Virus record (IMG/VR): IMGVR_UViG_3300021431_000086
Location: 61,932 to 125,931 of that record
Strand: one strand, 5' to 3'
DNA: 64,000 nucleotides
Source of the DNA: a virus
Taxonomy: Duplodnaviria > Caudoviricetes
Shown here: positions 7,382 to 62,165 of the stretch, piece after piece
How the letters are laid out: each line of letters begins with the position of its first letter
Position numbering within the stretch: position 1 is the stretch's first letter
Position numbers and translations under genes: made by a program
The notes under the pieces: generated by a model
Database searches by the model: none
Told to the model about the DNA's origin: nothing
The model's input: the letters and a program-made list of their open reading frames with translations, nothing else

Positions 7382-10300
7382 ATGGAACATCTTTCTCTCG
7401 AGATATTCGACCGCGAAGGAACGGGAAGTAAGTACGCCTGGCTGCCTGAGGATGCCAGCATCACCATCACCGACACCAGTGAGATATTCGCCAGCGGAGA
7501 TGTATGGTCGCATAGCTTTTCTCTGAATATTCCTGCCAATGTCCACATCTTCGGTACCAGCGGTGATCTGCATGGATCCCGTCTGCACGATCAAATCAAC
7601 AAACGAAAGGCACGGCTGTGGGTGGAAGGCTTACCGCTTTATATGGGTTATCTCATGCTGGACGATGAAGTTGACGTGGATGAGAACGGTAATGTTGACG
7701 TAAGGTTTGAGAGCGGCAATAAGACTTTCGATGAAATGATTAAGGGTACAAAAGCCAGGGAGGTGAGCGTCGGCGACGTGGTAATTGGCGTGGCACTGAA
7801 CCGTAAAAGAGTCGTAGGAATCAAAAGACCATGCGGAGTATTTAGGCTTGATGGCCTTGCTGCGTATGTGGCAAAGAATCATCACCATGAAGGGCTGGAC
7901 GGATATTTTTGTTATTTTAGTGTAGGGAAGTATGACGAATGGGTAAGAACCCCTTACGCTCAACGCTGGCCGAAACTTGTGAAAAGCCATGGAAATATAT
8001 ATGACAGCAATGGTATCGCTGAAAATAAGGATTATACTAATGTCCAGATGCCCTACGATGCAGGGCATCCGTTCTGTAATATCAACATCTGCTATCCATT
8101 AAAGGCAACGAAAATTACGGATGGACAGTCGGAGGAAGTTGCCGGTCGTGGCTATACCATTCGTCTTGCACATGGAACCGCAACCACTGATGGCGGAGAT
8201 CGCCAGACACGTTTCAACAACTCGCCCAATTTCTATCTGCTGCATTTTGTTGACAGACTTTTCAAAGACCTTGGAATACACGTCGCAGAAAATCAGGCCC
8301 TGAACGTGGAAGACCTGCGACGTGTATTTATGCTTAACTACGGTTGCCACTACGAAGAGATTGAGGATGAGTATGAAGATGACGAGATGGACAGCCATGC
8401 CACTCCGAGAAAGAAGGTTGGACGATATGGTCAGTTTTATTTGCCACTTATTCAAACCGGGTCAGGCCGTGCCGGTGGTTATCTGCCTGTAGCTGGATGG
8501 GAAAATGCAGGGAAGCAGGTTCTTGCGGACGAAGAAATAATAGGCAAGGCACTGTTGCGAGATTTGGTTTTAAAAGAGAGGGGCAGTGTCATTCAAAATT
8601 TTGGATCTGTTGAGTGCCGGATTGCAACAGCACAATCCAATATTCCATCCTTCCCGTTTGAAGGTGGGTTGCAGTTTGAACTTATAAAAGATGAGCATGA
8701 GGAGGAAACAGGCGGATACTCTGCCTACCTCGCTTATGCTACGGGGGAAAACTACCCAAATGTGGAGATAAGCGAGATTGTCAACGCCATGAAGTCAATG
8801 TTCGGCATACGCCTTATTTTCGATAGTGATTATTCAACAGTTCGCATAGTTCTGCTTCGCAACATACTCCGAAATAGCGATGTACAGCACATTAACTGCG
8901 ATGTCCTCCCTGCGATTAAACAAGAGAATAACATACGCGGTTTCCGCATGACATACGGGAAGGGAAGCGACAGCACGAGCTTCTATTATAAGGGGTTTGC
9001 CGACTTGTTCGTCCGAAGTGCAAAGATATGGAAGGACACAACCGACAAGCACGATTACTCAAAATGGAACCTTGATGCGGACTATGATATTATCAATTCG
9101 CAGGTTTCTGCCTTTAACAAGACATGCTATGTCACTCCGGTGAACGGAAATGCCTATGGTGTACAGGTCGATGAGGATGAAGATGTACTTTTCCCATCTC
9201 TGTTCGAGTGGGCAGGGTTTATGGATGCCGAGGACGGCGACTGTTCCGGAGCGGATGAAACCGTCGAGGAAATACAGTGTGTGGCTGCACCAGTTATAAT
9301 GAACGAAATTAATGGGACATACGCTTCGCTGTTCGACAGCGATCTGAAAGCACCGTCAGGCGCTGCGCAAAAGATAGGAACTTTTGCCAGGGCAACCTAC
9401 CAGCCTCAGGAACTTACGAACGAAACCGTGTATGCAGGAATGGACATTGCAAGTAACTATACGATATCTGGCAAGCTCGAAATATTCCTTAGCGAAGGAT
9501 TCCAGATCCGTATGCTTGACAACTACGCTATAAGCAACGGCGGCACTCCATTCGACGAGGCGGACCCCGGCCTGTGCTTTGGCATCATGCGCGGAAGCGG
9601 AAGCGATGCCCATGTGAGATATTATGAAGATCAGGATGACGGCGAAGAGAATGATGCGTGGGAAATCGTTCCCGGGAACGGGGCAATTGTACACCCGGAC
9701 ACCTGTGACAGCTACGGGAACGAGTGGGACTATGACGGGGCGACTGGCTATAAGCGTGTCTGTACCAGTCCTGCTGACGCGGTGGAGGCAATGTCTGCCA
9801 TGTTCCCTGATACACACTTTAGTCTTACCACCCGCTCATCCAGCACTTATATGACAGGATTTTTCCTTCCGGCCGTTACCGACAATACGGGAAAATCCCA
9901 CACTTTGCTCATGGCTGGAGCTACTAAGGACCAATCTCCATTGATGCCAGGCATCATGCGTCAACAATACATCAACGACCTACAGGGAAAGAGCATCGAG
10001 CAAATTCTTGAATGGGACACTAATCATTATAACCTACTCATAGAAACTGACAGTTCCAGAGAGAGGGCGCAGACGCTACTTAATCTGCAGAAACTGGCAT
10101 ACTCCAATGGAGGGCCAGTTACCGTGAGTGGTGGAACGGATGTGTCACAGGGACGTTTCTCCCTTAAGCTCCGGGCAGAAAAACTCAACCCGAACTTCGA
10201 TCCGAACAGACCTGAATACAGGACCGTTGAGACCAAGGCCGAAGCGGCAGAGACAATGACTGAAATGTTTGAAGGCTCCAACGCGGATTTACTGAATCGC

Positions 10301-33359: not shown

Positions 33360-34574
33360 CTATTTCTTATTCATCCGCTCCACCACCTGCAGCATCATGT
33401 TCAGGCCGACGGCATCCATCGCGCTGCCACTGCCAGCACCGTTGCCCATGATTATTTCAGGCACCCAGCGAACTTGGCTCTGCGCCAGTTCGTGTGCGAT
33501 GCCGATGGCTGTCTCCTTCTCGATGGTGGCGCGTTCCAGTGGCGTGAGTCCGGCACTGACGAGGGCGCGGTTGGCAGCGGCCTTGGCTTCGCCCTCTGCC
33601 TTGACACGCTTGGCTACTTCCTCGGCACGGGCGGCTTCCAGCCGGGCCACCTCAAACTCCTGTTCTGCCTTGGTCACGGCCTTGGCCTTCTCCTTCTCCT
33701 GCTCCCACTTGGCAGTCTCGGCGGCCTGCTTGCCCTGTTCCGTCACGAGGATGGTCTTCTGGATGGCTTCAAGACTCTTGGTCTTCGATGTCACCTGTGC
33801 CAGGTTAGCGGCTTTCTGTGCGTCAATCTGGTCCTGCGTCATCTTGTCGTACTTGATGTCGGTGATGCTGACGAGGTTGCAGACAATGCCGTACTGTGAG
33901 AAGGGACTGACCTCCTGCCGCTTGTAGCCGCCGGGGGCGTTGCTGTCCATAATCAGTTCGGCCTTTGCCACGATGTCGCTGTCGCCCGTCAGTTCGTTGA
34001 TGACCGTCATCTTGTGCATCTTGGTTTTATACACGCCGTCGTTGAGCTGGTCGGTGATGTACTGGATAAGGTCGGTGCGGGTCTCGCTGACACTCTCCAA
34101 CGAGGACATGAGCGGGCCACACGAGGTGACAACCTTGTAGAGCGTGGGACGGATAAGCGCGGAAATCAGCGCCTGTTCCGAGCCGAAGTCCTGCTGTATC
34201 TTCGACATGTGGCCGGCATCCGTAGGCAACACCACACGCAGCGAGCCGATGATGAATCCCTTGCCTTTATCGTTGAAGGTGACGGCTGCACCGGGATTGT
34301 CGCCAACTGCCACATATCCCTCCTCGTTCTTCTCTACGCCGGTGAACTCCACTTGCGATGTCTTGTGATACTCGTAGATGTTGCCCCACCACTGCTGCTG
34401 CAGTCCACCATCGGTCCACACGGCGTAGTTGCCCGTATAGGGGTACTGGTTGACATAGATTTTAGATTTGTCGCAATCCTCGAAGGCTCCCTGCAACAGG
34501 AAGAGCATGAAGATAACGAGGGCACCGACGATGATGCCAACAATGTGGCCTCTCTTGATTTCAAATGGTTTCAT
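33360..34574 (-). CDS. SPFH/band-7 (prohibitin-like) membrane protein
   Basis: N-terminal TM, SPFH-like core, AE/AKA-rich coiled coil, C-terminal VPEIIMG. Confidence 0.75.
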   Translation of the reverse strand: MKPFEIKRGHIVGIIVGALVIFMLFLLQGAFEDCDKSKIYVNQYPYTGNYAVWTDGGLQQQWWGNIYEYHKTSQVEFTGVEKNEEGYVAVGDNPGAAVTFNDKGKGFIIGSLRVVLPTDAGHMSKIQQDFGSEQALISALIRPTLYKVVTSCGPLMSSLESVSETRTDLIQYITDQLNDGVYKTKMHKMTVINELTGDSDIVAKAELIMDSNAPGGYKRQEVSPFSQYGIVCNLVSITDIKYDKMTQDQIDAQKAANLAQVTSKTKSLEAIQKTILVTEQGKQAAETAKWEQEKEKAKAVTKAEQEFEVARLEAARAEEVAKRVKAEGEAKAAANRALVSAGLTPLERATIEKETAIGIAHELAQSQVRWVPEIIMGNGAGSGSAMDAVGLNMMLQVVERMNKK

Positions 34575-36197: not shown

Positions 36198-36263
36198 AGA
36201 AGAATAAGTGAGAAGTGGTGCAAGCAAAAACAAGTATTAACATTTTTTAATATATTTACAGCT

Positions 36264-36818
36264 ATGCAAACAAAAGAGAATGAAATTTTCAAGCAGATGC
36301 TTGATTGGATTTATGCCAACACCGAAGCTCACAACCAGGCAGATGTAGCCCGTCGTTCAGGACTATTTGAGGCTACCATCTCTCGAGTGTTAAATGGCAG
36401 AATAAAAAAAGTGAAACAAGAAACACTAAGAAAAGTCAATTCTGCATTCGACAACGTGTTCAACCCAGCATGGCTTCGTGGCGATAGTGACGTGATGCTC
36501 ACAGCAGATTTGCAACCCTCAGCAACACATTCCGACACCGACGCACCAGCTGGCTTTTCCGATATGGTAAACTCACCAGACCATTCAAGCCTTGTCAACG
36601 CCGCCCTCGCCGCAAAAGAAGAAACCATAGAATCGCTAAAGCGTGAACTGACCACAAAGGACGAAACCGTAACTGCACTTCGCGACCAGCTTGCTGACAA
36701 GGAGCGCTATATCCTTGCTCTTCAGCAGCAACTCCGTGAACTCCACACGCAGGAGCACCCCCAAAAAGAAATCTCACATGGCTGCTCCTACCACATGGGA
36801 GTTGCTGAACCTGAATAA
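36264..36818 (+). CDS. XRE-family HTH repressor with C-terminal coiled coil
   Basis: NQADVARRSGLFEATISRVLNG HTH; FNPAWLRGD. Confidence 0.85.
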   Translation: MQTKENEIFKQMLDWIYANTEAHNQADVARRSGLFEATISRVLNGRIKKVKQETLRKVNSAFDNVFNPAWLRGDSDVMLTADLQPSATHSDTDAPAGFSDMVNSPDHSSLVNAALAAKEETIESLKRELTTKDETVTALRDQLADKERYILALQQQLRELHTQEHPQKEISHGCSYHMGVAEPE

Positions 36819-36900
36819 TCCAAGCCAAACAATAAAACAAAACCCCTCGCCATGAAGCCAGGGGGTTCTGTTTGGGGTCGAGGCTACTTTGCGATACCTC

Positions 36901-36935
36901 TGCCCTTGACCGAACATTCAAGAGACTTTATCTTG
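36901..36935 (+). promoter_or_regulatory. Late-promoter motif copy
   Basis: cctcTGCCCTTGAccg identical over 16 bp to 7291-7306; TTG ends 26 nt after the motif. Confidence 0.6.
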
Positions 36936-36962
36936 CAGATAAATTCCTTTGGGGACAGGACA

Positions 36963-37095
36963 CAAAAAAGTCCCCGACCTGCACGTAAAGCTCTCTTACC
37001 TTCTTACACGCTATCTGCCAATCGCAGATGGTCGGGGGCTATAATCCTCGTTCATCCGCGATTGGCAGATTATTTTGTCAGCGTGTAGGTAAGAG
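36963..37095 (-). ncRNA. Structured ncRNA: long hairpin plus pseudoknot
   Basis: Stems 36993-37001/37087-37095, 37005-37012/37080-37087 and 37013-37025/37058-37070. Loop 37030-37037 pairs with 36972-36979. TACATTTG -7 box at 37107-37100; U tract at the end. Confidence 0.7.
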
Positions 37096-37131
37096 ATTGC
37101 AAATGTAGTTATTATTTTTCAAAAGAGAGCT

Positions 37132-37359
37132 ATGATACGTGCAGAAATTATTGAATTTAACAAAGAATTGCTTCAAAAGCTGAAGTATTCGGGCGTAAAA
37201 CTGGAAGATTACAAGTATTGTGACTTGTATCGAGACTATGTTGAAATGTCGCGCACAGAGCGGAATAGAAAGGTAATCTTCTTGACACTATCCCAGCGTT
37301 ATGGAATCAGCGATAGACAGGTGTACAACATTGTAAACCATCTCAAAACTCCTGTATAG
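37132..37359 (+). CDS. Small C-terminal-HTH regulator (Mor-like)
   Basis: LSQRYGISDRQVYNIV. Confidence 0.7.
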   Translation: MIRAEIIEFNKELLQKLKYSGVKLEDYKYCDLYRDYVEMSRTERNRKVIFLTLSQRYGISDRQVYNIVNHLKTPV

Positions 37360-37367
37360 CAGTATGT

Positions 37368-37454
37368 TGAAACGGGTGCTTCGGGGATGAAGTGTTGTCT
37401 TCGTGTGCTCTCATGTAATTGTCTTTGTGTCAGTGGAATGAGTGCGTAATTTTG
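37368..37454 (+). promoter_or_regulatory. Two operator-like boxes plus a consensus host promoter
   Basis: TGAA-N8-TTCG at 37368-37383 and 37388-37403; TTTG(37424-27)-N19-TAATTTTG(37447-54). Confidence 0.65.
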
Positions 37455-37524
37455 CCGCCGGGTTCTTCAATAAGACCCGCGAGATTATTCACATTTTTAC
37501 CCACAACACAAACACATCACAATT

Positions 37525-38610
37525 ATGAGTGACATGAAAGTATTTTCCATTCCCGACACGAACGGCGGTAATGGAGGCGGCGCTTTCGGTAACGGTGTCG
37601 TGCCCTTCATGCTCGGTGCAGCCATGAATGGCGGCATGGGAGGCTTCGGAGGTTTCGGAGGCGGCTATGGTTGGAATGCCATGAACATGAACAACATCAC
37701 CGAGTTGTTCGCAATGGGCATTCTCGCTCGCATGTTCGGCTGGTATGGCAATGGTGACGGCATGGGCGGCGGCAGCGGTGCAGCCTTCCTCTCCAGTCAA
37801 ATCAACGGCAACAATGGCCGCGACCTGATTATGCAGGCTGTGACCAGTCAGGGCGAACAAAGCCGCACGGCTACACAAACCCTCTCGACGATGCTCGGCC
37901 AGGACTTCAACCTCGTCAACAGCGGCATCCAGCTCATCCAGTCTTCGCTCGCTTCAATCGCTGCACAGCAGGGCATGACTCCGCTGCAAATCATCAACGC
38001 CATCCAGAGCGGCAACGCTGCCCTAAGCCAGCAACTCTGTCAATGTTGCTGCGACAACAAGTATGCTATCGCGCAGCAGACCAGCGAACTGCAGCAAGGC
38101 ATGAACAGCGGCTTCAACGGCGTACAGATGGGCCTGAATCAGGGCTTCAACGGCGTAGAGCGCGGCCTCTCCGGCATCCAGACACAGATGGCGCTCAACG
38201 CAGGCAAGGACGAACTCGCCACCTGCCAGCAAACCTACGCCCTCACCGATGGTGCCAACCGCAACACGCAGGCTGTCCTCGCCAAGCTCGACGCCATGCA
38301 GACTCAGGCGCTACAGGACAAACTCGATGCCGCGCGTGAGAAGAACACGCAGTTGGCAGGCGAAATCTCCCAACTTAACCAGAACCAGTACATCGCCGGT
38401 GTGGTGGGTCAGACAATGGCTCCGGTCAACGCACAACTCGCCGCACTCAACAAGGAGGTTGACGACATCAAGTGCAAGCTGCCTAATACCGTCAACGTGC
38501 AGTACCCGAACCTCGTGGCCGTCAACGCTACGCCCTATGTCAGCGGAGGCATCTACCCCAACGGCATGTTCGGCGGATACCCCGGCGGCTACGGTAATTT
38601 CGGTTTCTAA
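37525..38610 (+). CDS. Gly-rich / Gln-Asn coiled-coil protein with CQCCC motif
   Basis: 361 aa; hydrophobic Gly-rich N-terminus, 11-residue GFNGV repeats, strongly C-ending codons. Confidence 0.85.
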   Translation: MSDMKVFSIPDTNGGNGGGAFGNGVVPFMLGAAMNGGMGGFGGFGGGYGWNAMNMNNITELFAMGILARMFGWYGNGDGMGGGSGAAFLSSQINGNNGRDLIMQAVTSQGEQSRTATQTLSTMLGQDFNLVNSGIQLIQSSLASIAAQQGMTPLQIINAIQSGNAALSQQLCQCCCDNKYAIAQQTSELQQGMNSGFNGVQMGLNQGFNGVERGLSGIQTQMALNAGKDELATCQQTYALTDGANRNTQAVLAKLDAMQTQALQDKLDAAREKNTQLAGEISQLNQNQYIAGVVGQTMAPVNAQLAALNKEVDDIKCKLPNTVNVQYPNLVAVNATPYVSGGIYPNGMFGGYPGGYGNFGF

Positions 38611-38627
38611 GAAAGGAGGAATGAGCT

Positions 38628-38972
38628 ATGGGATGTTATGCTAATATACCAACCAATATCAACGGGATTCCCTACCTGCGCACGAGCAACACTACCGTAG
38701 GCACTGCGACGGTTGACCTCGCTCTCGGTTCGTATCGCCGTCCGCTTCCTCCCGTTGGCTACTTCACGGTGCGTATCGCCGATTCCATCCCGACGGGCAC
38801 GACACCAACGCTGCCCGTCACCTTGACGCGGAACGGTACGACCCGTGCGCTCACCCTCTTCGATGGAACTGCAGTAACCGTGGCTGACCTCATCGGCGGC
38901 ACTGGAGTCTTCCTCGTATTCAACGATGCGGAGAACGGCATCCTCCAGCTGATGAGTCGCACCGTGGTCTGA
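38628..38972 (+). CDS. Small beta-rich hypothetical protein
   Basis: 114 aa, Thr/Val-rich. Confidence 0.75.
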   Translation: MGCYANIPTNINGIPYLRTSNTTVGTATVDLALGSYRRPLPPVGYFTVRIADSIPTGTTPTLPVTLTRNGTTRALTLFDGTAVTVADLIGGTGVFLVFNDAENGILQLMSRTVV

Positions 38973-39033
38973 CAGCCACTGTGCCCGTCGCATCAGCGGC
39001 GGGATAGTATTAACAAACAAAAAGCAATAACAA

Positions 39034-39603
39034 ATGGATTTCCAAAGCCTAAAACAAGGCTCGCCCATCTACATCCTTCAGGAGGGTGGCACCGAACCGC
39101 AACTCACCATCGCAACGGTGGTGAACAAACCCGAACCCAAGCCCATGTACATGACGCAGACACCTGGAGCAACCCCTGGCATCTATGCCGGCACCAACAT
39201 GATGCAACCCGTCGTGGAGGTAGTTGCCCGCGTAGGTAATGAGGACATTCCGTTCTCGAACCTGACTCCAACCGCTTCATCTGCCACATACAACAACGGG
39301 CAGACCACCATCAGTTGCACTACCGAGGGAATGTTGCCTGCCGTCGATTCCATGATGCAGAAGAGCCGTAAGCACATCGAGGAAAACCCCTATCACGAGG
39401 CAGTGCTGGTGAAAGGAAAGGAGTTCCTGATGTCGCTTAATCCCCGCTATAAGGAGGAGGAAGAGCAGAAGCAGGACATCGCCAACCTGAAGGGTCAGAT
39501 GGGTGACGTGGTGAACACGATGAACACCATGATGTCCATGATGCAGGATCTGAACAAAAAGATTTCAGGCTCCTCATCAAAAGGCAAACGGGAATCCGAC
39601 TAA
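39034..39603 (+). CDS. Hypothetical protein (beta N-terminus + Met-rich coiled coil)
   Basis: 189 aa. Confidence 0.75.
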   Translation: MDFQSLKQGSPIYILQEGGTEPQLTIATVVNKPEPKPMYMTQTPGATPGIYAGTNMMQPVVEVVARVGNEDIPFSNLTPTASSATYNNGQTTISCTTEGMLPAVDSMMQKSRKHIEENPYHEAVLVKGKEFLMSLNPRYKEEEEQKQDIANLKGQMGDVVNTMNTMMSMMQDLNKKISGSSSKGKRESD

Positions 39604-39618
39604 ACACCCCTTACGACT

Positions 39619-39921
39619 ATGATTTTCGGTATAGAATTTCGCGACGAGCACGACAAGCAGGAACTCGTCGAGAAGGCACAGGCTGCCAAGGAAGCGGTTT
39701 GTGACCTCTGGGAGAAGATGGCCGAACACATGCCCGAGCTTCAGCAACTGCAGGAGCGTGGTGGCCGCTATCGTGGCGGCTACGGCATGGGCTGGAATGG
39801 TAACGTAGGCTATCGCAACTACGGCGGTGGCATGAACTACGGCGGCGGCAACTACCGCGAAGGCGGCATGTACCGCGAGAACCCGGCTTACACCGGCTAC
39901 GGTGACCGTCGCGGCTACTAA
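39619..39921 (+). CDS. Helical N-terminus + RGG/YGG low-complexity protein
   Basis: ERGGRYRGGYGMG...NYGGGMNYGGGNYREGG. Confidence 0.75.
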   Translation: MIFGIEFRDEHDKQELVEKAQAAKEAVCDLWEKMAEHMPELQQLQERGGRYRGGYGMGWNGNVGYRNYGGGMNYGGGNYREGGMYRENPAYTGYGDRRGY

Positions 39922-40067
39922 GCCCCAGCGGTTGAGCACCGTGCCCGGCGGTTCTCCGTCGGGCCTCTCCCTCCCCGGAGCGGGCGGCGCATCGCCGCCG
40001 CCCCCTCCACTTTTCTCAATCATCGTCATGTATGCTGCGATGACATCGCAGCCCAAATAAAACAACT

Positions 40068-40487
40068 ATGGAAAATCTCCGCCAATACGACATCATGCCG
40101 GAACCGCTGCGCAAGTACCTTGCTCAGTACGGCCACCACTTTTCAAAGCCACTCTGCGACTACGCCGTGTCCCTTATGAAGAAAGCAGGACCAGACGGGA
40201 AACCGCAAGCCATCACGCCAATGACGCGCGAGGAAGTAGAGAACCTCCTCAAAACAAACGGCGTAGAGTTGAAAAACAACGTCCTCTACGACCACGTGTT
40301 TGTCGCCAATATGGTAAAGTCCGACCAACTCGGCTCCAGCGTCCCAGATGCCAAGCATCACGCCCTCGCCATCCGCGACTACATAGATGACATCGACAAG
40401 GCCGAAGGCTATATCTTCGACCGCTGGATGTCCGACCTTTGCGGCCTCGGCCCAAAATATATCCCTTATTGGGAAGACATGATATAG
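40068..40487 (+). CDS. Hypothetical helical protein
   Basis: 139 aa; YG.HFSK.LC.YAVS.M and DYIDDID. Confidence 0.75.
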   Translation: MENLRQYDIMPEPLRKYLAQYGHHFSKPLCDYAVSLMKKAGPDGKPQAITPMTREEVENLLKTNGVELKNNVLYDHVFVANMVKSDQLGSSVPDAKHHALAIRDYIDDIDKAEGYIFDRWMSDLCGLGPKYIPYWEDMI

Positions 40488-40587
40488 ATTTACGATTTGA
40501 CGATTTACAAATTACCAACCGCAAGTAAATCGTCAAATAATCAAATCGTAAATAAATAGTAAATTGCAAATTGGCAAATCGTAAATG
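40488..40587. repeat. Inverted arrays of ~8-bp ATTTACG/CGTAAAT repeats (REP-like hairpin)
   Basis: atttacgatttgacgatttac ... gtaaatcgtcaaat...aaatcgtaaat. Confidence 0.6.
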
Positions 40588-40971
40588 ATAAGGGATTATC
40601 TCGACATAGACTCCCACTGGGGCATCCTCGCTTATTACGATGCCACCCCTTCCGACTTCTCACAGCTCGGCCCCATTCTCCGTGAGTTCGGTTGTCCTGA
40701 GCAGGAAATCGAAAAAGCATGGCACACCCTCCACCGTCCCAACAAAGCCTTCGTGTGGAACGCGCCCTGGACACGCATGTCTGTCATGGTCGTCTCGCCC
40801 GTCACTCATCCTGCTCAGTTCCTCAACAGCTTCATGCACGAGACCGATCACCTGCAGGATGCCATTCTCTCCTATTACCGCGTTCCGCAAGGTACTGAGG
40901 ATGCCGCCTACCTTCAAGGCTACATCGGGCAGATAGCCTATGATGCCATCTTGCCCTTGCTATGCCCTTAG
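40585..40971 (+). CDS. HExxH (zincin-like) small protein
   Basis: FMHETDHL plus downstream EDAAYLQG. Confidence 0.65.
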   Translation: MIRDYLDIDSHWGILAYYDATPSDFSQLGPILREFGCPEQEIEKAWHTLHRPNKAFVWNAPWTRMSVMVVSPVTHPAQFLNSFMHETDHLQDAILSYYRVPQGTEDAAYLQGYIGQIAYDAILPLLCP

Positions 40972-41002
40972 TGCGCTTTGCGGTGTCCCCACAAAGATTC
41001 CC

Positions 41003-41037
41003 TGCCCTTGATTTTTTCCCTGTATTTTGCGATTTTG
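41003..41037 (+). promoter_or_regulatory. Late-promoter motif copy
   Basis: TGCCCTTGA-N23-TTG ending 13 nt before the ATG at 41051. Confidence 0.6.
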
Positions 41038-41050
41038 TCGCAAAAAAGAT

Positions 41051-41533
41051 ATGAACAACTGCAAAGAATTTATCCTCGATGACGTGATGGCTATCACCGC
41101 CATCCCCGTCACCGATTTCTTCCCCAGCACAGCCACCTGGCAACTTACGCCCACCATAGAAGCCGACCTCTTCTCCCCTAACCTCACCAACGCAATCACC
41201 ATCGGCCTTCAAGCCGCCACGACTGGCGCCACACTCATCCCCATCATGCGCAAGACAGGCAAAGCCAAGGATGACGAGTCTGACAGTACCGCAGGCCGCC
41301 TCCATACCGTCACCGTCACATGCGAAGCCGACGACCGCGACCTGTCCGTATGGAACGACCTTCTCTCCCTGGAGCGCACAACATCCCACCTCCTTCTCAC
41401 CTTCCGCGACCAGAGCCGCGCTTTCGTCCAAGCCACTGAGGACACCTACCTCTGTAACGTAGAACGCGACGGAAGCAAAACCTCCGTCGCATTCCAGGTG
41501 CAAAACATCATGGGCATCCAGATGATAGTGTAA
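41051..41533 (+). CDS. Beta-rich hypothetical protein, possibly structural
   Basis: 160 aa from ATG 41051, preceded by the late motif. Confidence 0.6.
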   Translation: MNNCKEFILDDVMAITAIPVTDFFPSTATWQLTPTIEADLFSPNLTNAITIGLQAATTGATLIPIMRKTGKAKDDESDSTAGRLHTVTVTCEADDRDLSVWNDLLSLERTTSHLLLTFRDQSRAFVQATEDTYLCNVERDGSKTSVAFQVQNIMGIQMIV

Positions 41534-41580
41534 CCACTGCGCTTGCGATTTTTCACTCTTCACTTCCCTTTCAGCCAACA

Positions 41581-41700
41581 CAACAGCTTTTCGCACTCCG
41601 CAACCACTCTCCGCAGGAGAGCCCCCAAAAAGACTTTTCACGTGGCTATTCCTACCCCTTGGGAGTTGCTGAACGGGGACAAAACGCAGCCGAGCCCTAA
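41581..41700 (+). pseudogene. Remnant 3' end of a paralogous repressor gene
   Basis: 41612-41674 is 53/63 identical to 36748-36810; QESPQKDFSRGYSYPLGVAE vs QEHPQKEISHGCSYHMGVAE. Confidence 0.75.
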
Positions 41701-41702
41701 AA

Positions 41703-41795
41703 CAAAAACCGCCCCTCGCTATCACAGCGAAGGACGGCAAAACTCAAAATCACTATAGTTATGAAAACTATGGTGTGCTTTCACGCGCACACGCA
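41703..41795 (-). ncRNA. Candidate 3'-end sRNA B with anti-translation-start sequence and terminator
   Basis: Two hairpins, AUAGUGAUUUUGAGUUUUG, then GCCGTCCTTCGCT-GTGAT-AGCGAGGGGCGG-TTTTT. Confidence 0.55.
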
Positions 41796-41815
41796 CGTTA
41801 TGTATATAGGTAATG

Positions 41816-42304
41816 TCATTGATTATATGGTGTCACCTTCATGTCGAAATCCGTTCCGTTGTACCTTTCGACCACAAATCGCACGTAACCCTTCCCCGAT
41901 TTTAAGTACTTTATGATTTTGCGGATGTCCTTTCGCCCGAACATATAGTAATCGGCGGTCGCTATGTATTGCCCCATGTGATTATCCTCTGGCAGGAGAT
42001 GCACTGTCACCATTTTCTGCATATTCCCTTGTTCGTCGTAAAATCCTGCCTTGACCGGAACAAATACAGAACCAGAAGAAACCCACGTCCTGAACATTCC
42101 TTTCTCGGTGATAAGCCGGAAATCCGCTTTATCCCAGTCCCAGATAACCATAGAGCCAACTCCTGCGACATCATAAATATACACATCCTTGGCTTCCTGC
42201 CCCTTCATAGGGTCGGCCTCACGATGCGAAACATTCCACACTCCCTGTGCGCTTGCTGTCAGCACCGCTAACAGCATCAGCGCGATTGTCAATAACTTCT
42301 TCAT
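41816..42304 (-). CDS. Secreted hypothetical protein
   Basis: Sec signal MKKLLTIALMLLAVLTASA. Confidence 0.7.
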   Translation of the reverse strand: MKKLLTIALMLLAVLTASAQGVWNVSHREADPMKGQEAKDVYIYDVAGVGSMVIWDWDKADFRLITEKGMFRTWVSSGSVFVPVKAGFYDEQGNMQKMVTVHLLPEDNHMGQYIATADYYMFGRKDIRKIIKYLKSGKGYVRFVVERYNGTDFDMKVTPYNQ

Positions 42305-61865: not shown

Positions 61866-62165
61866 TTATTTGATAATTTCGGGTCCGATTTCTACTTCAT
61901 AGTGAGTGCGTCCCTTGGCCTTGCCCGTGTGCTCATAGTCGCGGAACGATGAGCGCAGTTCCTCTCCGTCGATTTCCTCAATAGAGCTGAAGTTGTCGTC
62001 GTAGGTACACGCCAGGTTTATCCTTCCTTCGTACTTGTCGCATAGTGCTTCGTACTTGGCCTTGGCCTTGTCTTCACTCTCTGCACGATAGTAATGGTTC
62101 GTGCTCACAGTTATATCGCCATTGATAGTGCGATGTTCTGTTACTACCCAAATGTAGTTTTTCAT
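61866..62165 (-). CDS. Hypothetical protein
   Basis: 99 aa. Confidence 0.6.
   Translation of the reverse strand: MKNYIWVVTEHRTINGDITVSTNHYYRAESEDKAKAKYEALCDKYEGRINLACTYDDNFSSIEEIDGEELRSSFRDYEHTGKAKGRTHYEVEIGPEIIK

Follow-up and report, generated by a model that had tools for sequence, protein, structure and literature searches.

This report concerns a compact block of small phage genes, hereafter the cassette, located within a 64,000-nucleotide stretch of viral DNA (the window; positions 61,932 to 125,931 of the IMG/VR virus record IMGVR_UViG_3300021431_000086). A preliminary description of this DNA had proposed a self-contained set of seven genes at 37132-40971, and all seven open reading frames (ORFs) are present there. 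An eighth frame of the same orientation follows at 41027-41533. The whole block, 37132-41533, is an accessory operon that moves horizontally among Bacteroidales phages. The features of the locus, in window coordinates, are as follows.

36731-36810, left copy of an 80-nt direct repeat; overlaps the 3' end of a 184-aa Cro/CI-type helix-turn-helix (HTH) gene at 36264-36818
37132-37359, plus strand, ORF1; 75 aa, probable C-terminal HTH, phrog_17790; loosely tied to the cassette
37368-37383 and 37388-37403, plus strand, two TGAA-N8-TTCG dyad boxes; candidate operator or activator site
37424-37454, plus strand, Bacteroides-type promoter; -33 TTTG at 37424-37427, 19-nt spacer, -7 TAATTTTG at 37447-37454
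37525-38610, plus strand, ORF2; 361 aa, phrog_16490 / T5.077 family; proposed shaft
38628-38972, plus strand, ORF3; 114 aa, phrog_31654, beta-sandwich; proposed knob or partner
39034-39603, plus strand, ORF4; 189 aa, phrog_28898, N-terminal beta domain and Met-rich C-terminal coiled coil
39619-39921, plus strand, ORF5; 100 aa, acidic helix followed by an RGG/YGG-rich tail
40068-40487, plus strand, ORF6; 139 aa, helical DUF7841 (PF25223) / phrog_38431
40488-40586, plus strand, structured spacer between ORF6 and ORF7; nested inverted repeats
40585-40971, plus strand, ORF7; 128 aa, small zincin-like protein; H85-E86-x-x-H89 codons at 40837-40851
41027-41533, plus strand, ORF8; 168 aa, TTG start with an ATG 8 codons in; lineage-specific last gene
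41595-41674, right copy of the 80-nt direct repeat

Conservation of gene order among Bacteroidales phages

The preliminary description had named a failure of the genes to co-occur elsewhere as an outcome that would count against a functional unit. A survey of gene neighbourhoods, made with tblastn and by inspecting individual loci, found instead that ORF2 to ORF7 do travel together. The order ORF2-3-4-5-6-7(-8) is kept in two near relatives, the loci L004 and L005, whose ORF2 proteins are 94% and 65% identical to that of the window. The same order recurs in the distant loci L014, L015 and L017 (ORF2 25-39% identical), in the crAss-like phages cr271_1 (Intestiviridae) and cr116_1 (Steigviridae), and in the cultured Bacteroides uniformis phage C3_41T2LP. 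The Suoliviridae phages cr4_1, cr109_1 and cr53_1 carry a DUF7841-RGG fusion gene followed by ORF2-4. A divergent form resides in the Parabacteroides distasonis phage PD691P3, where three genes lie just upstream of the endolysin gene, one homologous to ORF4 (E 3.5e-8), one weakly like ORF2 and one coding for a DUF7841 fusion; the divergent homologues are the 226-aa and 179-aa genes of this phage. Its 370-aa, 100-aa and 189-aa genes were considered as ORF2, ORF3 and ORF4 and proved not to be homologous to them.

The cassette lies inside late structural or lysis operons in the crAss-like phages and in L005, and it comes after holin, LysB-like or endolysin genes in the Suoliviridae, cr116_1, L005 and PD691P3. 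In C3_41T2LP it follows recombination genes, not lysis genes. Some relatives are found on contigs of 120-134 kb that encode a protease, a tape-measure protein and a reverse transcriptase, and the contig surrounding the window, with several DNA methyltransferases, an LPD29 protein and many proteins that belong to no family, looks like part of a large phage. A megablast comparison of the cassette with the phage collection returned no match, no tRNA genes lie within the 64-kb window, and no Rfam family is present across 36200-42000.

Two further observations were made on the relatives. Directly upstream of the L005 cassette (8877-9517 of that locus) are genes for two small membrane-type proteins, one of 99 aa with a single hydrophobic helix and a coiled coil and one of 111 aa with two hydrophobic helices, which judging by their sequences look like a holin or a lysis regulator. 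Within cr4_1 (L001, 8791-10790), in-frame TAG codons occur once in the ORF2 homologue and seven times in the ORF4 homologue. Since these genes align well when TAG is read as Gln, the cassette lies within the recoded part of that genome; L015 needs TAG = Gln as well.

An accessory and mobile block

The accessory character of the cassette can be seen in a comparison of two phages of the same subfamily: PhicrAss001 has just 236 bp at the site where cr116_1 carries the cassette. This site lies between homologues of PhicrAss001 gp30 and gp31, and homologues of gp28, gp30 and gp31 flank it. Profiles of ORF2 and ORF4 found nothing in PhicrAss001, PhicrAss002 or DAC15, and these three cultured phages make virions without the cassette. 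A second comparison, between the window and L004, reveals proteins that are 63-94% identical. Homology is confined to 37125-41533, and nothing detectable is shared in the 10 kb on either side of the cassette. The two copies of the 80-nt repeat are 78% identical, are spaced 4864 nt apart and bracket exactly the block that is homologous to L004. This repeat could mark the boundary of a recombination event, or else represent a terminator element that occurs twice; the left copy contains a minus-strand hairpin followed by a T-run. Among 301 bacterial genomes of the same order, two gave a strong match, one of which is the window's own, so the cassette appears to reside mostly in non-integrated phages.

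The neighbourhood of the cr116_1 site has one additional peculiarity. PhicrAss001 (L012, 25698-26865) has its dimeric head-fibre gene, gp29, between the holin and endolysin genes. A gp29 homologue was not detected in cr116_1 (L011, 3570-4549), where the cassette follows a few hundred bp further on, nor was one found in cr271_1 or cr4_1; these are too few genomes to call a replacement.

ORF2 and the CCC family

The largest cassette protein, ORF2, matches phrog_16490 (E 1.1e-37, residues 66-347) and belongs to a family that is confined to phages and very large: clustering at 90% identity gives more than 3000 groups, and at 50% identity 422 clusters fall at E of 0.001 or less. According to the family alignment, its members begin with a Gly-rich region that includes a brief hydrophobic stretch; next comes a helical domain with a nearly invariant CCC at its end, and towards the C-terminus follow a long helix, a KCKxPxTVxVPYP motif and a Gly/Tyr tail. 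ORF2 carries the conserved KCKLPNTVNVQYP motif, and its residues C174-C176 (codons 38044-38052) are nearly invariant. Among 94 full-length family representatives, 86 have the CCC and 78 have an aromatic residue among their last three positions. Several details of the preliminary description are borne out here, namely the CQCCC (residues 172-176), the Gly/Tyr tail (Gly/Tyr/Phe, with 35% Gly and 15% Tyr) and a 33-bp duplication, whose tandem copies at 38098-38130 and 38131-38163 are 73% identical. The latter is a clade-specific insertion that falls in a low-confidence loop of the structural model.

The same description called the N-terminus both Gly-rich and hydrophobic. The former holds true (32% Gly), but the latter property is weak in this copy. 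The best 13-mer reaches a Kyte-Doolittle value of 1.45 at residue 61 and is charged, and the best 19-mer (1.16) is at residue 290, outside the N-terminus; a Gly-flanked segment is therefore present, yet weak. Many ORF2 relatives have a far more hydrophobic Phe/Trp/Leu stretch with poly-Gly flanks in the same region. A hydrophobic 13-mer (Kyte-Doolittle 2.0 or more) occurs in 54 of the 94 representatives, the median position of the most hydrophobic 13-mer over all 94 is residue 48, and a classical transmembrane score is reached by 22 of them, the window copy falling below it.

An AlphaFold monomer model of ORF2, with a predicted local distance difference test score (pLDDT) of 63, has helices at 86-195, a single helix of ~100 residues at 217-318 and disordered ends. 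A Foldseek search of the PDB with this model gave nothing at E 0.001 or less, the top rows being unrelated helical proteins with Vipp1 at a probability of 0.25, and the ESM Atlas returned unnamed viral clusters only. Single-sequence Pfam searches with ORF2 and ORF4 yielded generic coiled-coil noise, and the sole significant Pfam match in the cassette is DUF7841. We also considered ORF2 as a class I fusion or spike protein and rejected this idea, given that matches of PDB profiles for coronavirus HR1 and influenza HA2 are non-significant (E 0.011-0.7). Such coiled-coil matches, none of them significant, are the origin of the deposited names ‘spike protein/glycoprotein’ and ‘outer capsid protein/viral fiber’. 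A match to characterised virion proteins had been listed earlier as another result that would speak against a novel system, and none exists among the cassette proteins.

Beyond Bacteroidales phages, the ORF2 family profile aligns with T5.077 of phage T5 (hhalign probability 96.6%, E 5.8e-10, 114 columns, N-terminal half only), and a genome-scale profile search of T5 recovers this relationship at E 5e-4. A clear homologue is encoded by the Clostridium perfringens phage XP41-N3 (hhalign probability 99.3%, E 3e-20), and further phrog_16490 homologues are present in predicted Methanomassiliicoccales viruses. Perhaps the family reaches archaeal viruses, if the Methanomassiliicoccales host call made by the depositors of Caudoviricetes sp. 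vir215 (L023) holds. At 4641-5522 of L023 is a phrog_16490 member with two CCC motifs, which adjoins a reverse transcriptase of the retron or diversity-generating retroelement type and an integrase.

A moderate fold resemblance of ORF3 to tail-fibre domains

The ORF3 protein is modelled as a beta-sandwich (pLDDT 82, predicted template modelling score 0.75). Its family numbers more than 3900 clusters at 90% identity, and Cys3 is nearly invariant within its clade. The standout structural match is tail fibre gp47 of phage Pa193, which ranks first with Foldseek and leads an independent wide PDB search. Residues 239-336 of gp47 superimpose with Z 5.9 and a root-mean-square deviation of 3.2 A over 90 residues, the next match being at Z 2.9. 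Against BFVD, the ORF3 fold finds its own family first (E 2e-10 to 2e-4) and then at least 10 proteins named tail fibre, collagen-like, minor tail or receptor-binding (E 6e-4 to 3e-2, template modelling scores of about 0.5). A link between ORF3 and ORF6 comes from a further match of this fold, to a crAss-like protein whose name describes it as DUF7841-containing. Based on these models, we consider that ORF3 resembles, moderately and at the level of the fold only, a domain of the phage tail-fibre or receptor-binding type.

Other candidate identities were considered for ORF3. Homology to the PhicrAss001 head fibre gp29 (HFD) was rejected (hhalign probability 0.1%), and Pfam has no family for seven ORF3-type proteins, including an XP41-N3 protein with a Cys-rich N-terminus. 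The wide PDB search listed no Ena, BxpB/ExsFA or BclA jelly-roll protein among its 18 chains with Z of 2 or more.

Partner proteins encoded by the cassette

ORF4 is kept in every Bacteroidales version of the cassette and is the most widely kept partner after ORF2. Its matches to PDB profiles for paramyxovirus F and syntaxin (E 0.006-0.04) are non-significant and were treated as compositional. ORF5 has the RGG/YGG-rich tail noted earlier, and proteins of this type, with an acidic helix and an Arg/Gly/Tyr- or Arg/Asp-rich tail, occupy the same position in distant cassettes; in the Suoliviridae, an ORF5-like tail is fused to DUF7841. ORF6 itself is a clear DUF7841 protein (E 1.2e-20, 74.3 bits against a cut-off of 25.2), as are its homologues in cr271_1 and C3_41T2LP, and its matches to RNase A among PDB profiles (E 0.008-0.6) are again non-significant and treated as compositional. 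ORF1, ORF2, ORF3, ORF4 and ORF6 all match PHROGs with no assigned function.

The HExxH motif previously pointed out in ORF7 reads HETDH. Its residues H85, E86 and H89, together with E105, are invariant in seven homologues of 20-80% identity, and the last Glu sits 16 residues after the second His, which is the gluzincin pattern. Seven members gave no Pfam match at or near the cut-offs of curated peptidase families, and ORF7 has no PDB sequence match. The best Pfam results are Reprolysin_3 (E 0.016) and DUF6782 (E 0.15), each for one member, and a lead to Peptidase_M78 through the ESM Atlas scores 0.87, below threshold. The C3_41T2LP homologue was deposited as ‘PolyVal metallopeptidase superfamily’. 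A relationship between ORF7 and the cr4_1 endolysin was rejected for want of any alignment. Just upstream of the ORF2 homologue in cr116_1 (L011, 5267-5614) is a gene for a second small HExxH-like protein of 115 aa (HECLH, deposited as VOG3488), which is additional to the ORF7 homologue. ORF8 travels with the block in the near relatives L004 and L005.

Inspection of N-termini by eye revealed no signal peptide or lipobox in the eight products, nor in the homologues of ORF3 to ORF8. A separate gene 2.5 kb upstream (33360-34574, minus strand) encodes a 404-aa protein that matches phrog_11908 and, weakly, SPFH/Band 7 (E 2e-4); from its sequence, it is possible that this is a membrane-scaffold protein of the phage.

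Regulatory features and the ORF6-ORF7 spacer

ORF1 belongs to phrog_17790 (E 4e-17), a PHROG with no assigned function, and has weak matches to Pfam Mor (E 0.13) and to the late-activator PHROGs phrog_836 and phrog_532 (E 0.04-0.06). Its homologue adjoins the cassette in L004 and L014 and lies 6.5 kb upstream in L005, where it precedes a large (1034 aa) late gene of unassigned family, and unrelated excisionase-type HTH genes occupy the ORF1 position in cr116_1 and cr271_1. ORF1 is not a fixed cassette member. The notion of a self-contained seven-gene cassette is thus sound as regards its own promoter and the wide co-occurrence of ORF2 to ORF7, but ORF1 has to be set apart.

Both upstream boxes, 20 bp apart at 37368 and 37388, and the promoter at 37424-37454 are present as first described. 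TGAA-N8-TTCG occurs three times in the window when both strands are counted, and these boxes are two of the three. GAA(A/G)-N6-CTTC half-sites are kept in L004 and L005 with spacers that vary, as expected of a protein-binding site, and ORF1 may act on these dyad boxes. L004 and L005 also keep the -7 box and an A/C-rich leader that reaches the ATG. The promoter was assigned with the Bacteroides consensus (TTTG / -7). A TAnnTTTG box is found 35-84 nt upstream of the ORF2 homologue in seven of 12 Bacteroidales-type loci. A scan with the sigma-70 consensus, which is the wrong model for Bacteroides promoters, found sites no more frequent than in shuffled sequence.

The codon usage of the cassette had been taken as a sign of high expression. 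Codons ending in C are indeed enriched, since the fraction of C at third positions is 0.36-0.58 in ORF2-8 compared with 0.15-0.48 in 15 other ORFs checked. Because the plus strand is C-rich in 27 of the 32 two-kb bins of the window, and because the total GC content at third positions of ORF2-8 matches that of other contig genes, we rate high expression of the cassette as plausible, which is a weaker statement than the one first made.

The spacer at 40488-40586 contains a perfect 14-nt inverted pair (40495-40508 and 40525-40538) whose 14-mer is found nowhere else in the window, and its RNA fold of -23.7 kcal/mol has a z of -3.7 relative to shuffled controls. The gap between ORF6 and ORF7 is 97 nt in the window and ~50 nt in L004. 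The spacer could have arisen by insertion of a palindromic element, or it could serve as an attenuator or processing site within the operon.

A dispensable fibre as the favoured explanation

The explanation towards which we lean, though with limited conviction, is that the cassette product is not a core part of the virion, a lysis device or a modifier of the host envelope but a dispensable, Cys-stapled fibre on the released particle, similar to a side tail fibre or whisker, that comes with its own helper proteins. The cassette products would assemble in the cytoplasm, because they have no export signals, and would probably do so late in infection. ORF2 would provide the shaft through its helical domain and its ~100-residue coiled-coil helix, and the near-invariant CCC would act as an inter-chain staple, either by disulfide formation or by metal binding. 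ORF3, with its tail-fibre-type beta-sandwich, and ORF4, with its beta domain and coiled coil, would be the structural partners, and ORF5, ORF6 (DUF7841) and the peptidase-like ORF7 (HExxH...E) would serve as assembly or processing helpers.

Several lines of evidence point in this direction, beginning with the fold of ORF3, the rod-like shape of ORF2 (both from monomer models) and the location of the cassette in late structural or lysis operons. In addition, the Cys content of the ORF2 C-terminus co-varies with that of the second gene. The Cys-rich-tailed forms of ORF2 in cr116_1, C3_41T2LP and XP41-N3 adjoin second-gene products with Cys clusters, and the KCKLP form of ORF2 adjoins an ORF3 with the conserved Cys3. 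Two analogies argue in the same sense. Extracellular fibres such as collagen III and laminin typically have their trimeric rods stapled by neighbouring cysteines, and phages are well known to exchange fibre genes and their helper genes as modules, as exemplified by lambda stf/tfa and T4 gp37/38. The preliminary description had spoken of an assembly system such as a membrane-inserting fibre or pore with a maturation protease. Its fibre version fits the models of ORF2 and ORF3 and the zincin motif of ORF7, but this copy has no convincing transmembrane segment, and nothing supports the accompanying suggestion that the system alters the host envelope or physiology.

Several observations weigh against a fibre of this kind. 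No member has been seen in a virion; those of the searched crAss phages for which virion proteomics or structures exist (PhicrAss001, PhicrAss002 and DAC15) do not carry the cassette. The fold match of ORF3 is moderate (Z below 8), and the stretch of Pa193 gp47 that served as reference is a fitted AlphaFold model too. In cr116_1 and C3_41T2LP the second gene has no detectable homology to ORF3, and that of XP41-N3 gives a weak motif match only (probability 29%). Furthermore, the same cassette is carried by podovirus-like crAss phages and by phages with tape-measure or large tail proteins, and such varied virions are easier to explain by a function that is independent of virion architecture. The remote members T5.077 and the XP41-N3 homologue are encoded in early or accessory regions. 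Finally, the very hydrophobic Phe/Trp/Leu stretch with poly-Gly flanks in many family members suggests membrane contact.

Alternative explanations

The last of these points leads to an explanation that we judge to be nearly as likely as the fibre, in which a Cys- or metal-stapled rod is associated with the cell. ORF2 would be attached to the cytoplasmic membrane of the infected cell by its Gly-flanked hydrophobic segment and, together with its partners, would form a structure independent of the virion that could for example bar the DNA entry of other phages, stabilise the membrane or tune the timing of lysis. The hydrophobic 13-mers of 54 of the 94 representatives, some of them rich in Trp and Phe, are consistent with such an anchor, although the segment of the window copy is weak and charged and the classical transmembrane score is attained by 22 of the 94. 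The breadth of the family is a further argument, in that T5 of E. coli, the Bacteroidales and Clostridium phages and the predicted archaeal viruses have differing virion types, and the cytoplasmic membrane is the sole target common to all of them. The cassette's own promoter, its moron-like place at module borders, its frequent position beside holin-like genes and the early or accessory location of its remote members would also be accommodated. However, known exclusion proteins are single small genes and not six-gene sets with a beta-sandwich that resembles a fibre domain, an invariant Cys cluster would be odd in the reducing cytoplasm unless it binds metal, and a periplasmic rod could not meet partners that have no export signal. 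Another idea is that ORF2 is a spanin-type lysis accessory, which would bridge the inner and outer membranes or fuse them with each other when lysis is completed. Here the cassette's place after holin, LysB-like or endolysin genes in the Suoliviridae, cr116_1, L005 and PD691P3 would be explained, and a hydrophobic N-terminal segment ahead of a coiled coil with conserved Cys recalls the i-spanin Rz. Nevertheless, we found by eye no partner lipoprotein, lipobox or signal peptide in the cassette genes, and ORF2 lacks an N-terminal transmembrane domain (its best 19-mer, at 1.16, lying at residue 290). The distribution also speaks against this role: a clear homologue is present in XP41-N3, whose host C. 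perfringens has no outer membrane, the Suoliviridae already encode a LysB-like protein beside the holin, lytic crAss phages exist without the cassette, and in C3_41T2LP the cassette comes after recombination genes. A spanin role is unlikely, the least probable of the roles weighed here, and is largely refuted by this distribution.

Two other proposals keep the cassette proteins inside the particle or inside the infected cell, and we find both improbable. One holds that ORF2 is an internal virion protein, packed as a pilot or channel that is ejected and inserted into the host membrane, with ORF7 processing it. The Gly-rich hydrophobic segment followed by a coiled coil is reminiscent of a fusion peptide, and the faint profile matches of ORF2 to coronavirus S2 HR1 and influenza HA2 (E 0.01-0.7) and of ORF4 to paramyxovirus F and syntaxin (E 0.006-0.04) have the same flavour, but these matches are below significance and probably reflect coiled-coil composition. 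There is a precedent in the cargo proteins of PhicrAss001, which include one with a predicted transmembrane helix (PMC10172136). Yet packaging is phage-specific and the cassette crosses unrelated virion types, and PhicrAss001, PhicrAss002 and DAC15 infect without it. Marginally less probable again is the condensate scaffold raised in the preliminary description, by which the ends of ORF2, rich in Gly, Asn, Gln and Tyr, and the ORF5 tail with its RGG/YGG motifs would phase-separate, in a prion-like manner, in the infected cell. Composition is the sole basis for this proposal, including the Arg/Gly/Tyr-rich tails that recur at the ORF5 position in distant cassettes, and none of the results points to liquid-like behaviour. 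What is conserved are the ordered parts (the helical domain, the CCC, the long helix, the KCKLP motif and the folds of ORF3 and ORF4), whereas the low-complexity parts vary freely in sequence.

Significance of the cassette

Phages of three crAss-like families carry the cassette, and they are among the most abundant human gut viruses. Given that it is present in one close relative and absent in another, the cassette probably tunes something ecological, for which adsorption, particle stability in the gut and competition between phages are candidates, and not the basic replication machinery. Because two cultured phages are carriers (C3_41T2LP and, in divergent form, PD691P3), its function is open to direct testing. 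If the product were a membrane-held rod rather than a fibre, it would represent a previously unrecognised kind of phage machine, such as a superinfection barrier or a membrane-stabilising scaffold, with a core protein that Bacteroidota, Enterobacteria and Clostridia phages share and that archaeal viruses perhaps have too.

Literature searches yielded no paper on C3_41T2LP, DUF7841, T5.077, phrog_16490 or the PD691/DA691 phages, and a paper on epsilon crAss-like phages does not discuss the gene. The new elements of the present analysis are the fold link of ORF3 to tail-fibre domains and to a DUF7841-named protein, the exact comparison with PhicrAss001 for presence or absence of the block, the observation that export signals are missing, the HExxH...E pattern kept in ORF7 and the two cultured phages that carry the cassette.

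Comparison with known systems

Of the closest named relatives, T5.077 shares with ORF2 the Gly-rich N-terminus, the short hydrophobic stretch and the helical domain. Both are encoded in a small self-contained operon that has its own promoter and is set against the flanking genes. However, the resemblance covers the N-terminal half only, and its partner genes in T5, which encode a poly-Gln protein and a 64-aa Cys-rich peptide, bear no relation to ORF3-7. The match to T5.077 and phrog_16490 therefore names the family, not the mechanism. Spanins such as lambda Rz/Rz1 and P2 LysB/LysC are likewise located beside holin and endolysin genes and are helical rods with a conserved Cys after a hydrophobic segment, but ORF2 is ~2x the length of Rz, has no lipoprotein partner and no convincing transmembrane segment, and has a homologue in a phage of a Gram-positive host. 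With the small zincin-like peptidases (ImmA/IrrE Peptidase_M78, MPTase-PolyVal and DUF6782), ORF7 shares the HExxH plus Glu arrangement and its size, although no Pfam model matches it significantly.

Functional parallels are closer in two other groups. Fibre modules such as lambda stf/tfa, T4 gp37/gp38, T4 fibritin and Pa193 gp47 similarly combine a long coiled coil with a beta-sandwich of the tail-fibre fold, have helpers attached, are dispensable and are exchanged between phages. The cassette differs from them in having no sequence homology to known fibres, in encoding its putative shaft and knob as separate proteins, in the hydrophobic Gly-rich head and CCC of ORF2, and in the addition of zincin-like, DUF7841 and RGG-tail proteins. 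Morons, for example lambda bor, lom and the stx region, offer the same combination of an own promoter, a place at module borders, presence or absence in close relatives and bracketing repeats, but the classic ones consist of one or two genes that are often expressed from a prophage, whereas the cassette has six to eight genes and is found mostly in non-integrated phages. The closest named relatives of this system are T5.077 and phrog_16490, both uncharacterised, and its closest functional analogues are exchangeable fibre modules and morons.

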